Assembly (NCBI GenBank): GCA_024683775.1
Contig: GCA_024683775.1_4106.1
From: a phage
Direction: 5' to 3' (one strand)
Length of the DNA: 64,000 nucleotides
In this document: piece by piece, positions 55,575 to 60,372 of the stretch
Numbering within the stretch: the first letter of the stretch is position 1
Layout: the number at the start of each line of letters is the position of its first letter
Position numbers and translations under genes: made by a program
The notes under the pieces: generated by a model
Told to the model about the DNA's origin: nothing
Database searches by the model: none
Seen by the model: only the letters and a program-made list of their open reading frames with translations

Positions 55575-55802
55575 ATGACAAATACTTTTAAGTACTACCT
55601 CAATACTCTAAATGAACTAGAGTACGCGAAGTTTCTCGCGGATAGTTCGTGGCTAATTGAGCTAAAAACACATAACAGTACTGGATGTAACCTTATGCTG
55701 AACAATGCACTTGATACCCTTGTAGTGAGTATTTTACACAGCACCATCTGCGGGGATAGCAATAAACAATTATCAAAAATCTTAGTACTGGTAGCTCTAT
55801 GA
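55575..55802 (+). CDS. mini-protein paralog C1
   Basis: 75 aa; N-terminal MTNTFKYYLNTL; AAGGAG RBS. Confidence 0.5.
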   Translation: MTNTFKYYLNTLNELEYAKFLADSSWLIELKTHNSTGCNLMLNNALDTLVVSILHSTICGDSNKQLSKILVLVAL

Positions 55803-56011
55803 ACACTATGAACATTGAACAGTACTACATTGATGCACTACCAACAAAAGGTCTACGAGAAAGCCTACTGTATACACAAAATAATTATATAAACTTCAAA
55901 CATTGTCCTAAACTCTTGAACTCGTACAGGAATAATAAAATAAGAAATGCTGTACAAGGGGTAGAAAGTATGCAATACTATTACATCCTAACCCTTTTAA
56001 TCGAGCACTAA
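55799..56011 (+). CDS. mini-protein paralog C2
   Basis: 70 aa; N-terminal ...EQYYIDALP; ATGA overlap. Confidence 0.5.
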   Translation: MNTMNIEQYYIDALPTKGLRESLLYTQNNYINFKHCPKLLNSYRNNKIRNAVQGVESMQYYYILTLLIEH

Positions 56012-56012
56012 T

Positions 56013-56198
56013 ATGTATAAAGAATTCTACTGTAGTAAGCTGCACAAACAATACAGAGATTCATTTCCCAATGAACCTATGGATATGAATAGTCCCTTTT
56101 ATAAATTTGACTTCAGACTGGAGACACGTTATGCAATAGAACATCAATTTCCTGAAACTAAGTACTTATCTATCATGAACCTCATCTTTAAGTTCTAA
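56013..56198 (+). CDS. mini-protein paralog C3
   Basis: 61 aa; N-terminal MYKEFY. Confidence 0.45.
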   Translation: MYKEFYCSKLHKQYRDSFPNEPMDMNSPFYKFDFRLETRYAIEHQFPETKYLSIMNLIFKF

Positions 56199-56209
56199 AA
56201 GAGTACTAT

Positions 56210-56422
56210 ATGAAAACTATGAACATACACCAGTACTACTTAGATATTCTCCCTAAAGATGTACAGTTCATCCTTAAACAAGAATACAGTACTTTAAAAA
56301 ACCTTAAAAGAACCGCACCGAATGTATTAATCCTGCACCAAGAAAATGTAGTTGATAATATTCTACAAGGTGTACCAGGGACCGAGTACTTTAACATAAT
56401 AAGGCTAATTACATTACCATGA
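56210..56422 (+). CDS. mini-protein paralog C4
   Basis: 70 aa; close relative of C2. Confidence 0.5.
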   Translation: MKTMNIHQYYLDILPKDVQFILKQEYSTLKNLKRTAPNVLILHQENVVDNILQGVPGTEYFNIIRLITLP

Positions 56423-56604
56423 ATCATATATTATACTATTACCAAAATCTATCCGACAGGGACAAGTACACCCACAACTCCAATGTATGGTACTACAAAC
56501 GCGGTAGTATAAGAGACAAACAACATTACTTCTGTATTGCTATAAAAGAAGCACTAACAACTAAGTACACGTACAGAGCAGTACTGAAACTTATTGATAT
56601 GTAA
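56419..56604 (+). CDS. mini-protein paralog C5
   Basis: 61 aa; C-terminal YTYRAVLKLIDM. Confidence 0.45.
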   Translation: MNHILYYYQNLSDRDKYTHNSNVWYYKRGSIRDKQHYFCIAIKEALTTKYTYRAVLKLIDM

Positions 56605-56614
56605 AGAGAATACT

Positions 56615-56797
56615 ATGAGCATTGAATTGTACTTAAGTAAATTACAGCCTGGCGATAGATTCATCTACAATAAGTTCGAATTCAACTACAAGAACGGGAG
56701 CAACAAATATCGTCGAGGATACCTATATACAAGCACAAGAGATGCACAAAACGAAAAGTACACATACAGAGAAGTACTTAAACTAATCTCTATTTGA
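56615..56797 (+). CDS. mini-protein paralog C6
   Basis: 60 aa from ATG 56615; C-terminal YTYREVLKLISI. Confidence 0.45.
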   Translation: MSIELYLSKLQPGDRFIYNKFEFNYKNGSNKYRRGYLYTSTRDAQNEKYTYREVLKLISI

Positions 56798-56805
56798 GGT
56801 AATAT

Positions 56806-56991
56806 ATGAATACATTTGAGTACTATACAAATAAACTATCTATGCCTGAAAGATCTCATCTCTATGTGTGGAGAAATGCGTATAAAAGCGGCAATAAACT
56901 TATACAAAGAAATTCCCTTACAGTGTGTACAAATTTAATTAAAGCAGAGTACCGCACATATATTGAAGTACTCAAACTGATAGCAATATAA
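56806..56991 (+). CDS. mini-protein paralog C7
   Basis: 61 aa; MNTFEYY...EVLKLIAI. Confidence 0.5.
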   Translation: MNTFEYYTNKLSMPERSHLYVWRNAYKSGNKLIQRNSLTVCTNLIKAEYRTYIEVLKLIAI

Positions 56992-56999
56992 GGTACTCT

Positions 57000-57179
57000 A
57001 TGCAAGAATTCTATATCTATAACCTCCAGCACAAAGATAGATACAACTATAATAAATTCCAAAGGTACTACACAGTCGGGAACAAAAGAGATAAAAAACG
57101 TTATCTACTCTCGTGTACAGTAGAAGCACAAAACGAAAAGTACACGTACAGAGAAGTACTTAAACTAATCTTAATCTAA
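57000..57179 (+). CDS. mini-protein paralog C8 (59 aa, below ORF-track cutoff)
   Basis: hand translation MQEFYIYNLQHK...YTYREVLKLILI. Confidence 0.45.
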   Translation: MQEFYIYNLQHKDRYNYNKFQRYYTVGNKRDKKRYLLSCTVEAQNEKYTYREVLKLILI

Positions 57180-57186
57180 GGTAGAC

Positions 57187-57375
57187 ATGAACACTTTTGA
57201 GTACTACTTCAATAAACTAAACCACATAGAACAAAGTATGCACAACTCATTTATTCAGCACCATCAATCATCTGCACATGGAATTAAAAATATATCGATT
57301 GAGATTATCACTACCCGTGTACTGTCATCTGAACGTTATATGTATATTGATGTACTGAAACTCATCTCTATGTAA
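57187..57375 (+). CDS. mini-protein paralog C9
   Basis: 62 aa; MNTFEYY...DVLKLISM. Confidence 0.5.
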   Translation: MNTFEYYFNKLNHIEQSMHNSFIQHHQSSAHGIKNISIEIITTRVLSSERYMYIDVLKLISM

Positions 57376-57383
57376 GGAATAAT

Positions 57384-58590: not shown

Positions 58591-58598
58591 CACATAAT

Positions 58599-58790
58599 AT
58601 GAATAACCACAAAGAATACTACATAGAGAAACTCCCAATGTATCTCCAACACCTTGTACCAACAAAACAATTGAGTATAGAAAAAGACTACGAAAAAGAC
58701 TATTTCATTAAGTGCACTAAATCCTCGATAGATATTGAGGACTATAATAGAGTACTGTATCACATCCTTTTACTAATATATAAGTACTAA
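58599..58790 (+). CDS. mini-protein paralog C13
   Basis: 63 aa; MNNHKEYYIEKLP...LLLIYKY. Confidence 0.5.
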   Translation: MNNHKEYYIEKLPMYLQHLVPTKQLSIEKDYEKDYFIKCTKSSIDIEDYNRVLYHILLLIYKY

Positions 58791-58791
58791 T

Positions 58792-58980
58792 ATGAATAAC
58801 CACAAAGAATACTACACACAATTTCTCCCCAGTATATTTGAACACTACGCCAGATATAAAGTCCCCCTGGATAACGATTTGGCAGTACTGGGATTCAATA
58901 ACTGCATAGAACGAAGTATAGAAAATAGTAGTAGCTATGACCAGCTATATAACACTATCCTACTTATATTCAGGTACTAA
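58792..58980 (+). CDS. mini-protein paralog C14
   Basis: 62 aa; MNNHKEYYTQFLP...ILLIFRY. Confidence 0.5.
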   Translation: MNNHKEYYTQFLPSIFEHYARYKVPLDNDLAVLGFNNCIERSIENSSSYDQLYNTILLIFRY

Positions 58981-58981
58981 T

Positions 58982-59170
58982 ATGCATAAAGAATACTACA
59001 CAAAATATTTCCCAATGTACCTCAGTACTAATCTATTAGATAAACCTCGCGGTATCAATGCTCAAAACGATAAAGTGTACTTTACTATGTGCACTAAAGC
59101 ATGTATACTAGATTTTGATAGCTATCATCGAGTACTGTATCATACACTGTACCTAGCTTTCGTGTACTAA
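58982..59170 (+). CDS. mini-protein paralog C15
   Basis: 62 aa from ATG 58982; MHKEYYTKYFP... Confidence 0.5.
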   Translation: MHKEYYTKYFPMYLSTNLLDKPRGINAQNDKVYFTMCTKACILDFDSYHRVLYHTLYLAFVY

Positions 59171-59180
59171 AGAGGCCAAT

Positions 59181-59387
59181 ATGAACGAACAGAAAGAATT
59201 TTACACCAAACACCTCAGTGCATCAGAACAAATGTTTCTAAGGAGTGTATCACCTTTAAGTTTAGATACACCACACGCCAGAGATTGCTTTAATAATTGT
59301 ATACGTATTACTCTAGAAGCTTTAGAAAACAATAACAAAAATATTCAATACTCAGGCGTAATGGGACTAATATTCTTCTATGAATAA
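59181..59387 (+). CDS. mini-protein paralog C16
   Basis: 68 aa; MNEQKEFYTKHL... Confidence 0.5.
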   Translation: MNEQKEFYTKHLSASEQMFLRSVSPLSLDTPHARDCFNNCIRITLEALENNNKNIQYSGVMGLIFFYE

Positions 59388-59568
59388 CAAAGAATTCTAC
59401 TTAAACCATCTGGAACTAAACTCCCAAATGCTTATACCACTAAACCCAATAGATATCAAGGATAAGAAAAATACCAAACAATTCCACTACCACACACTAT
59501 GTGCTATCAACCCAGATTATAATACATATAAACTGTACTACATTCTCGCCCTAATATATAGGTACTGA
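59380..59568 (+). CDS. mini-protein paralog C17
   Basis: 62 aa; MNNKEFYLNHL...; overlaps C16 stop. Confidence 0.5.
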   Translation: MNNKEFYLNHLELNSQMLIPLNPIDIKDKKNTKQFHYHTLCAINPDYNTYKLYYILALIYRY

Positions 59569-59569
59569 T

Positions 59570-59755
59570 ATGCATAGAGAATACTATATACAATTTGTTA
59601 AAGGGAACTACAAACACGCCGTCCCCGTAAACCCCTTAAATTCTAATGACCCAAGTACTATATTCTTGTTCCATGACGCAATACGTACAGTACTCAATAC
59701 TAAAGATGAACAGGTGCAGTACGTATTCTTACTATTACTTATATACAGACACTAA
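59570..59755 (+). CDS. mini-protein paralog C18
   Basis: 61 aa; MHREYYIQFV... Confidence 0.5.
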   Translation: MHREYYIQFVKGNYKHAVPVNPLNSNDPSTIFLFHDAIRTVLNTKDEQVQYVFLLLLIYRH

Positions 59756-59760
59756 CTAAT

Positions 59761-59970
59761 ATGAATAAAGAACATAAAGAATTCTATTCCAAACACCTCA
59801 GCCCCACAGAACAAATGTTTCTAAGGACTACTGCACCTTTAAGTACTGATACTTATTTCGGCAGAGTATGCTACAATAATTGTATTCAAATGACTTTAAA
59901 CGCAAACGACAATAATAACAGTACTAATATGTACTCCGGCATCATAGGTATACTATTCCTATATGAATAA
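59761..59970 (+). CDS. mini-protein paralog C19
   Basis: 69 aa; MNKEHKEFYSKHL...; near-duplicate of C16. Confidence 0.5.
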   Translation: MNKEHKEFYSKHLSPTEQMFLRTTAPLSTDTYFGRVCYNNCIQMTLNANDNNNSTNMYSGIIGILFLYE

Positions 59971-60154
59971 AGAACATAAAGATTTCTATATAAGTAAACT
60001 AAAAGAAAACGAACAAGCATGGGTTAACAATTTAATCCCCCTGGCAATGACTCAATACGAATTTAATATGTGTACAAAGATTGTTTTAACTACTAATGAT
60101 ATCTCTAATACGTACTACTTCCTATTAAGAGTACTATATGGTACTTTGAAATAA
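59963..60154 (+). CDS. mini-protein paralog C20
   Basis: 63 aa; MNKEHKDFYISKL... Confidence 0.5.
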   Translation: MNKEHKDFYISKLKENEQAWVNNLIPLAMTQYEFNMCTKIVLTTNDISNTYYFLLRVLYGTLK

Positions 60155-60165
60155 TAAGGTATACT

Positions 60166-60372
60166 ATGCAGAACATAAAAAACTATAAAGAGTACTATAT
60201 AAGTAAACTACCACCGACTGACCAAGCATGGATTAGATCTATAATAGTACTGGCATTTAATAGATATGCATTTAACAGATGTACCGAGATTGCTATAGAC
60301 CCTTATAATATTAAAGAGAATGTACAGCATAATCAGTACTACTATATGTTAATGCTTATATATAGGAAGTAA
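60166..60372 (+). CDS. mini-protein paralog C21
   Basis: 68 aa; ...KEYYISKLPPTDQAW... Confidence 0.5.
   Translation: MQNIKNYKEYYISKLPPTDQAWIRSIIVLAFNRYAFNRCTEIAIDPYNIKENVQHNQYYYMLMLIYRK

Follow-up and report, generated by a model that had tools for sequence, protein, structure and literature searches.

It is nearly certain that positions 55575–60372 of the phage DNA analyzed here (64,000 nucleotides (nt); NCBI GenBank assembly GCA_024683775.1, contig GCA_024683775.1_4106.1; hereafter the window) form a single operon of approximately 4.8 kb, in which 21 tandem + strand genes encode mini-proteins of one orphan family and one further gene encodes an unrelated protein of 219 amino acids (aa). 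The role of this array can be proposed with less assurance. The reading that we tentatively favor is a diversifying library, expressed early, of small helical proteins that are soluble and bind or inhibit other proteins.

The original prediction, made from the letters of the window alone, had placed 21 small + strand genes in this interval, and all were present, encoding 59–75 aa each. A profile built from the 21 proteins recovered 21 of 21 in a six-frame translation of the whole window (E values, 2.8e-22 to 7.5e-12) and no further family member, as the two other matches both had E values above 0.1. The overlapping stop and start codons it had described were also seen, with an overlap or a 1-nt gap at 10 junctions, and most of the mini genes have a partial Shine-Dalgarno sequence or overlapping stop/start codons. 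The number of genes under 60 aa, given as four, had to be corrected to three, with two more of exactly 60 aa, and the gene of 219 aa (57575–58234), which is not a family member, had gone uncounted. The true starts of three mini genes differ from those in the mechanical list of open reading frames (ORFs) and lie at the ATG codons at 56615, 58227, and 58982, in agreement with the annotation of related phages. The genes are numbered m01 to m22 in array order, m11 being the 219-aa non-member; E values in the following list are from the profile hidden Markov model (HMM), and dN/dS is the ratio of nonsynonymous to synonymous substitution rates.

m01: 55575..55802, + strand, 75 aa; family outlier; HMM E value, 4.7e-12; orthologs 80–93% identical in 8 genomes, dN/dS 0.4–0.8
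m02: 55799..56011, + strand, 70 aa; start overlaps the m01 stop; HMM E value, 2.1e-12; matches m04 by BLASTP (37% identity; E value, 2e-11)
m03: 56013..56198, + strand, 61 aa; subfamily B-like; HMM E value, 2.2e-21
m04: 56210..56422, + strand, 70 aa; HMM E value, 7.5e-12; ortholog of at least 70% identity in 6 of 12 genomes
m05: 56419..56604, + strand, 61 aa; subfamily A; HMM E value, 3.3e-15
m06: 56615..56797, + strand, 60 aa; subfamily A; HMM E value, 2.2e-15; ATG at 56615 favored over TTG at 56594, as in the WPEC5 annotation
m07: 56806..56991, + strand, 61 aa; subfamily A; HMM E value, 2.3e-18
m08: 57000..57179, + strand, 59 aa; subfamily A; HMM E value, 7.4e-16; gave the best structure model
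m09: 57187..57375, + strand, 62 aa; subfamily A; HMM E value, 6.7e-18
m10: 57384..57563, + strand, 59 aa; subfamily A; HMM E value, 2.2e-14
m11: 57575..58234, + strand, 219 aa; between subfamilies A and B; basic, isoelectric point (pI) 9.3; PHROG 29152, a family without assigned function
m12: 58227..58409, + strand, 60 aa; subfamily B; start overlaps the 3′ end of m11; HMM E value, 3.6e-20
m13: 58411..58590, + strand, 59 aa; subfamily B; HMM E value, 6.3e-14
m14: 58599..58790, + strand, 63 aa; most central member of subfamily B; HMM E value, 1.4e-21
m15: 58792..58980, + strand, 62 aa; subfamily B; HMM E value, 2.7e-19; dN/dS 0.07–0.13
m16: 58982..59170, + strand, 62 aa; subfamily B; HMM E value, 1e-18; dN/dS 0.06–0.22
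m17: 59181..59387, + strand, 68 aa; subfamily B; HMM E value, 2.8e-22; nearest paralog m20 (59% aa identity; 72% nt identity over 204 nt)
m18: 59380..59568, + strand, 62 aa; subfamily B; HMM E value, 2.1e-19
m19: 59570..59755, + strand, 61 aa; subfamily B; HMM E value, 2.7e-20
m20: 59761..59970, + strand, 69 aa; subfamily B; HMM E value, 1.6e-20
m21: 59963..60154, + strand, 63 aa; subfamily B; HMM E value, 1.9e-19
m22: 60166..60372, + strand, 68 aa; final gene of the array; HMM E value, 6.6e-20; PHROG 11711 match with an E value of 3e-19

All-against-all BLASTP divided the family into subfamily A (m05–m10, with proteins ending in ..VLKLI) and subfamily B (m12–m22 plus m03), while m02 and m04 formed a pair linked to m22 and m01 was a marginal outlier. 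Searching with region 55000–61000 of the window matched 37 phage records, all of them Escherichia or Salmonella jumbo phages (310–386 kb), including 121Q, PBECO4, phAPEC6, and slurp01 of the genus Asteriusvirus; the closest was EC.P1, at 98.8% identity. The window itself comes from a jumbo coliphage of the genus Asteriusvirus (121Q/PBECO4/phAPEC6 group). In the annotation of these relatives, the small genes are called “hypothetical protein” and the minus-strand neighbors “regulator of chromosome condensation (RCC1-like).” Comparisons were made between the window and 11 related genomes, and the family census covered these 12 genomes.

Pooled Nei-Gojobori dN/dS of the mini genes against 121Q, slurp01, and JP4 was 0.43–0.46 (bootstrap 95% confidence interval (CI), 0.35–0.57), compared with 0.18 (CI, 0.16–0.20) for the + strand ORFs at 9–33 kb of the window. 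These values indicate that the mini genes are under purifying selection, 2.4-fold relaxed or partly diversifying relative to their neighbors. Single genes ranged from 0.06 (m16) to approximately 1.0–1.7 for m22, the latter on just 2–3 synonymous differences. All 21 copies are intact, and their orthologs keep length and frame across the 12 genomes. Because dN/dS is below 1, the copies are intact, and length and frame are kept, the mini genes are considered to be protein-coding. That they might be pieces of one decayed gene was also checked, and they proved to be independent paralogs: the family profile covers each of them over its entire length, ortholog lengths are kept, the dN/dS interval lies well below 1, and no frameshifted relics of the family were found in the window.

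AlphaFold2 modeled m08 with high confidence from an alignment of 60 sequences (predicted local distance difference test (pLDDT), 92.2; predicted template modeling score (pTM), 0.74), with helices at residues 2–7, 11–26, 29–43, and 49–58. The model of m22, with the 21 paralogs as the alignment, also had four helices (pLDDT, 78.4; pTM, 0.65). The family fold is thus modeled as a soluble four-helix bundle. No transmembrane segment was found in any of the 21 proteins, in which the maximum 15-residue Kyte-Doolittle mean was 1.57 or lower. A membrane-protein reading (holin, spanin, or exclusion-type protein) was rejected, the hydrophobic C-terminal stretch being approximately 10 residues long and modeled as a core helix. 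The net charge of the mini-proteins varies from −2.3 to +5.6, tyrosine accounts for 10.3% of their residues, and subfamily A is basic (pI 9.4–9.6).

The conservation pattern follows this fold. In the set of 151 unique members from 12 genomes, the tyrosine of helix 1 is invariant (150 of 150 unique sequences), and mean entropy is 1.9 bits in helix 1, 2.2 in helix 4, and 3.2 in helix 2. Conserved positions lie in helix 1, in a stripe of helix 3 (F/L36, C39, T/I40, and L/I44 in m08 numbering), and in helix 4, while helix 2 and the loop after it are the most variable parts and carry the insertions and deletions. The N-terminal motif by which the family had been recognized, M-x(1-5)-[KHQ]-E-[YF]-Y-x3-L, occurs in its exact form in only 7 of the 21 proteins; relaxed to an aromatic residue followed by Tyr-x3-hydrophobic, it is present in all 21. 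The hydrophobic C-terminus described along with it does exist as a stretch, but it is the final helix in the core of a soluble bundle and not a membrane segment. Since the conserved positions lie in helices 1, 3, and 4, a single conserved core begins with the N-terminal motif and finishes with the hydrophobic C-terminus.

Sequence-profile searches of Pfam, NCBIfam, PADLOC, and PDB gave no meaningful match to the mini-proteins, and the PADLOC-DB defense profiles gave only single-member chance matches with E values of 0.0027 or worse. The sole library family to recognize them was PHROG 11711, a viral family without assigned function, which matched 12 of the 21 at E values of 0.01 or lower (best, 1.9e-27). 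It misses subfamily A, m01, m02, and m04 and says nothing of their tandem arrangement; the other nine proteins are tied to the family only via the profile built from the window. BFVD holds one family member. The phage records returned by a tblastn search with m14 numbered 36 and were exclusively of the Asteriusvirus type, from Escherichia or Salmonella phages, and a word-indexed search of 5.8 billion proteins returned 45 matches of Asteriusvirus type only. When 1.84 billion representative proteins were searched exhaustively with the profile, just 31 matched, all of 41–75 aa, and the named ones came without exception from Asteriusvirus phages or from assemblies of E. coli. These searches indicate that the mini family is a genus-restricted orphan, with neither a Pfam family nor a known fold. 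The genes are already deposited as hypothetical proteins, partly under the unnamed PHROG, but neither a description of the family nor an Asteriusvirus transcriptome was found in the literature.

Each of the 12 genomes has 14–22 mini genes, 219 in total and 151 unique, which form 75 clusters at 90% identity, 52 at 70%, and 34 at 50%. JNE01 and Turkey5 have no 70% cluster in common with the window, and the mini-proteins of the window are 17–57% identical to their best JNE01 matches, whereas the genes directly downstream (62408–62827 and 63209–63511) are 91–100% identical to those of JNE01. The idea that the array is a hypervariable island while the rest of the genome is conserved was nevertheless tempered, as the upstream accessory region is also divergent, with a median identity of 56% to JNE01 (84% to 121Q, JP4, and slurp01). 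The mini orthologs that are retained have a synonymous divergence (dS) of 0.14–0.23, against approximately 0.5 in neighboring genes, which hints at recent exchange of cassettes between phages. Conserved junctions of 45–60 nt span each stop/start boundary, and these repeats could mediate unequal crossing-over. The annotated mini genes number 8 in the GenBank records of EC.P1 and phAPEC6, 10 in vB_Ec-M-J, and approximately 11 in BF17, while the profile found 21–22 in EC.P1 and BF17. In many GenBank records, less than half of the mini genes are annotated, and proteomic searches that rely on such records would miss the unannotated members.

As had been predicted, the mini array and an array of RCC1-like genes on the opposite strand diverge from a common hub of approximately 100 bp. 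The RCC1-like array (32962–55470, − strand) comprises 18 beta-propeller paralogs of approximately 375 aa with a Pfam RCC1-like domain, most of which start with MLP. The features of the hub are as follows.

Divergent hub: 55471..55574, no strand assigned, 104 bp between the first RCC1-like gene (− strand, start at 55470) and the first mini gene (+ strand, start at 55575); conserved in 9 of 9 aligned genomes, mean column identity 86%
Predicted sigma70-type promoter: 55521..55549, + strand; TTGACA, 17-nt spacer, TACTAT; A-rich tract upstream and palindrome CAGTACTG in the spacer
Shine-Dalgarno sequence of m01: 55561..55566, + strand; AAGGAG, with TAAGGAGAA invariant in the 9 aligned genomes

Neither the −35 element nor the Shine-Dalgarno sequence varies among the nine genomes, even where the first gene is just 25–28% identical, and the −10 element keeps TAnnnT in all of them (TACAAT in JNE01 and TAGAAT in Turkey5). 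No terminator-like hairpin was detected on the + strand inside the array, nor was any T4-late-like motif (TATAAATA/ATAAATA) or RCC1-type motif. A related phage, CBB, has a cluster of RpoD-like promoters over short ORFs of hypothetical proteins, which has been taken as an early host-takeover region, and its late promoters resemble ATAAATA (PMC5259590). Given the conserved sigma70-type promoter, the lack of an internal terminator or late motif, and the CBB parallel, early transcription is a reasonable inference: the hub promoter probably drives the array early through the host RNA polymerase.

The palindrome CAGTACTG also lies in the spacer of four canonical sites of the form TTGACA-N8-9-CAGTACTG-TATAAT (11522, 26847, 61054, and 63874), and this TTGACA-CAGTACTG-TATAAT architecture also precedes other small-ORF clusters in the window. 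Its place in the spacer is a classic operator position, and it may be a binding site for a regulator of early promoters. TCAGTACTG was counted 47 times in the window against 0.48 expected (approximately 100-fold over-representation) and is dense at 60373–62400.

The reading of the array as a library of binders is favored because a conserved scaffold is combined with a variable helix, turnover is fast, constraint is relaxed but real, the promoter is of host type, and no annotated member was detected in phAPEC6 virions. Under this reading, the host RNA polymerase would transcribe the operon early from the conserved hub promoter. The mini-proteins have a fixed core (helix 1 with its invariant tyrosine, the helix 3 stripe, and helix 4) and differ mostly in helix 2 and the next loop, and closely related phages rapidly gain, lose, and replace members of the family. 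Each could engage a different host protein or a variant of one, for host takeover or counter-defense, or possibly proteins of competitor phages. The data establish paralogy, coding status, fold, restricted distribution, turnover, and promoter conservation; we infer early timing, translation, and a binder or anti-host function, of which the function itself is speculative. A stricter version, which we consider unlikely, is an accordion-like library of “mini-binders,” in which the surface of helix 2 is diversified on a rigid four-helix scaffold, each copy neutralizes a separate host target (an immune protein, a toxin protein, or an allelic variant of one), and cassettes are swapped to match the defense repertoires of E. 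coli.

Several points weigh against the binder-library reading. Early timing is drawn solely from a match to the promoter consensus, and the −10 element agrees with it at 4 of 6 positions in this genome. The raised dN/dS may mean relaxed constraint and not an arms race; only m22 nears 1, on very few sites. On the identities given above, the array is not unique but among the fastest-changing sections of a genome region that is variable as a whole. Library and profile searches found no similarity to known anti-defense, host-takeover, or regulatory proteins, and structure search is uninformative for a bundle this small. The mini genes are also enriched in two short words, which may leave room for some constraint at the DNA level. 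AGTACT occurs at 7.7 per kb (versus 2.4–2.9) and TACTA at 10 per kb (versus 2.3–2.8), largely from the conserved codons for E-Y-Y, V-L-K, and R-Y-stop.

Other functions and origins were weighed against the same data. The targets might be proteins of co-infecting relatives or the phage's own variable components, so that the array would serve inter-phage competition or superinfection exclusion. The restriction of the family to one genus, the heavy recombination among the phages of that genus, the mosaic structure of both arrays, and the low dS of retained members, which suggests recent exchange, are all compatible with this, and the presumed early expression would fit exclusion. However, neither a membrane segment nor similarity to known exclusion proteins was found. 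We regard this role as improbable, although the present data do not separate it from host-directed binding. Somewhat less probable still is that the mini-proteins bind nucleic acid or modulate transcription, for example at CAGTACTG or AGTACT sites or at RNA polymerase, and so time the phage program. Subfamily A is basic, small helical bundles can bind DNA, and CAGTACTG is approximately 100-fold over-represented and lies in promoter spacers, including that of the array itself. The mini-proteins matched no known DNA-binding domain, helix-turn-helix or other, by fold or by profile. Neutral or selfish expansion, in which the copies are a by-product of unequal crossing-over at the conserved junctions and have little individual function, is given a similarly low probability. 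The junction repeats could drive such recombination, and both the copy number of 14–22 and the dN/dS above that of the neighbors are in keeping with it. Yet dN/dS is well below 1 with a tight CI, and several members are at 0.06–0.14. In addition, the copies in the window are all intact with no frameshifted relics, and the core residues are kept over 151 unique sequences.

The T4 prohead-protease site is [LI]-x-E and ends an N-terminal leader of approximately 10 residues. The N-termini of the mini-proteins had been likened to the T4 capsid-targeting sequence and the proteins proposed to be packaged or injected, a proposal that is not supported and that we consider very improbable. A few N-termini are indeed T4-like (MNTYKEFY in m13 compared with MKTYQEF in T4), and the phage group encodes a T4-type prohead protease (phAPEC6 gp227c). 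The motif, however, is helix 1 of the shared fold (pLDDT approximately 89–94 in m08), conservation extends beyond it to helices 3 and 4, and [LI]-x-E falls within the first 25 residues in only 4 of 21 proteins, at differing positions (12–19). The predicted sigma70-type promoter and the lack of a late-type motif in the array may also speak against packaging. In the phAPEC6 virion proteome (62 proteins), none of gp540c–gp548c, which comprise eight annotated mini-proteins and the homolog of the 219-aa protein, was detected. A protein of 4.66 kDa was detected in the same proteome, and therefore small size alone does not explain why the mini-proteins were missed. The phAPEC6 annotation lacks about half of the array, and those members were undetectable by its mass spectrometry, which leaves some room for packaging. 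The T-even internal proteins IPI, IPII, and IPIII are likewise small, diverse between related phages, and a plausible counter-defense set with a common N-terminal motif (PMC3012670). They are packaged, are otherwise unrelated to one another, and have only their targeting sequence conserved (PMC3012670), whereas the mini-proteins share a whole fold, have no conserved cleavage motif, and lie behind an early-looking promoter.

The similar copy numbers of the two arrays had also suggested cognate pairs; in such pairs, the mini-proteins would serve the 18 RCC1-like virion proteins as chaperones or adaptors or would inhibit them. A co-variation check across five genomes, with RCC1-like genes counted from 250 aa upward, gave the following numbers of RCC1-like and mini genes.

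Window: 18 RCC1-like, 21 mini
121Q: 12 RCC1-like, 16 mini
JNE01: 9 RCC1-like, 14 mini
JP4: 11 RCC1-like, 21 mini
slurp01: 13 RCC1-like, 20 mini

The arrays share the hub, both are tandem with variable copy number, and the counts rise together loosely in four of the five genomes. Nevertheless, the counts are uncoupled: ratios of mini to RCC1-like genes span 1.2–1.9, and JP4 (11:21) breaks the trend. Both arrays are mosaic between genomes (9–18 copies of the RCC1-like genes), and retention is opposite in two of them. JNE01 keeps orthologs of the window RCC1-like genes R10, R11, R12, and R14 at 93–99% identity and no mini-protein above 57%. Conversely, JP4 keeps m06–m08 and m12–m13 at 98–100%, m09 at 89%, and m10 at 78%, with just two RCC1-like orthologs of at least 90%. 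The two arrays evolve independently, and specific pairing is not supported. The promoter types also differ: a sigma70-type promoter stands before the mini genes, and seven RCC1-like genes are preceded by a terminator hairpin and then AGTATAATGAATAAAGGAG. Furthermore, eight RCC1-like proteins (gp003, 005, 006, 007, 009, 010, 549, and 551) are present in phAPEC6 virions, and the annotated mini-proteins are not. We consider cognate pairing as improbable as packaging.

Among the closest parallels to the mini array are the host-takeover module of SPO1 (bioRxiv 10.1101/569657) and the presumed early region of the Rak2-like phage CBB (PMC5259590), which are also one-strand runs of short ORFs without assigned function, behind strong host-type (RpoD-type) promoters and next to a promoter-rich non-coding stretch. 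Those clusters consist mostly of unrelated genes, while here one family has expanded 21-fold, and early expression is read from the promoter. Small early orphan clusters are common in large phages and have been the source of many anti-defense and host-takeover factors, but they usually mix unrelated genes. What is unusual here is a single 60-aa scaffold that each genome repeats 14–22 times in tandem, that comprises no fewer than 52 sequence types across only 12 genomes, and that has a fixed core beside one hypervariable helix. Should different copies prove to have different targets, nature would have provided in this array a compact binder set whose specificities could be read by comparing sequences. 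Small phage inhibitors such as anti-CRISPR and other anti-defense proteins, T7 Gp2, and T4 Dmd resemble the mini-proteins in size, in early expression (putative for the latter), in the lack of conserved domains, and in patchy distribution, but the mini-proteins have no sequence or specific fold similarity to them. Small phage inhibitors are not known to occur as 20-copy tandem arrays of one family.

Large eukaryotic DNA viruses carry multigene families, or “genomic accordions,” such as the multigene families (MGF) of African swine fever virus and the host-range genes of poxviruses. These paralogs likewise lie in tandem, differ in copy number from isolate to isolate, turn over fast, and are restricted to a genus, but they belong to another virus realm with other hosts and encode much larger proteins. 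If the accordion-like version is true, the mini-binder array would be a bacterial-virus counterpart of these host-range families.

The 219-aa gene in the middle of the array has an identical position in 11 of 11 related genomes, and its homologs were found only in Asteriusvirus-type contigs, so that it too is a genus-restricted orphan family. The protein has a KKRNKKKKSRN stretch and no match in Pfam or PDB. A fused or expanded mini-protein was considered and ruled out, as hhalign against the family gave a probability of 0.65%. Its dN/dS of 0.37–0.47 against diverged genomes resembles that of the mini genes and not of the neighbors; against the near-identical JP4 it is 0.8, on few changes.

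Many of the RCC1-like genes come with a terminator hairpin of their own and, after it, AGTATAATGAATAAAGGAG, which was seen in its exact form at seven sites and as related variants before other genes; CCAGTACT forms part of the hairpins between the genes. A + strand ORF of 216 aa (34164–34814) interrupts the RCC1-like array, with one RCC1-like gene (32962–34086) beyond it. A + strand gene of 660 bp, the same length as the 216-aa ORF (homology not tested), lies at the outer edge of the RCC1-like array in 121Q and JP4.

The mini genes favor C-ending codons, with fractions of 0.62 for TAC, 0.62 for TTC, and 0.57 for CAC, compared with 0.37, 0.38, and 0.28 in other + strand genes; in the RCC1-like genes these fractions are 0.22–0.28. 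This bias was considered as a sign of high expression and set aside in view of the strong skew in strand composition of the region. GC skew is negative throughout 34001–60000, and within this interval AT skew is +0.18 to +0.20 over the mini array only. The skew does not follow the direction of transcription, since GC skew is negative over both oppositely oriented arrays.

Directly downstream of the array, 60373–62400 comprises approximately 2 kb of higher GC content without an ORF over 60 aa. Strong promoter-like sites are present on each strand, several in all (one, at 61040–61067, has a 12 of 12 match), and an Rfam scan of it gave nothing credible. Its repeats include a 53-bp unit in 2.8 copies at 62201–62350, a 24-bp unit in three copies at 61482–61553, and GTAATCAT-type repeats at 60496–60554. 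This segment may have a regulatory role, serve as an origin of replication, or mark an end of the genome. Another small tandem duplication was observed at 25149–26184, where three adjacent + strand ORFs of 112, 115, and 122 aa share 28–30% identity (E values, 6e-12 and 2e-7).

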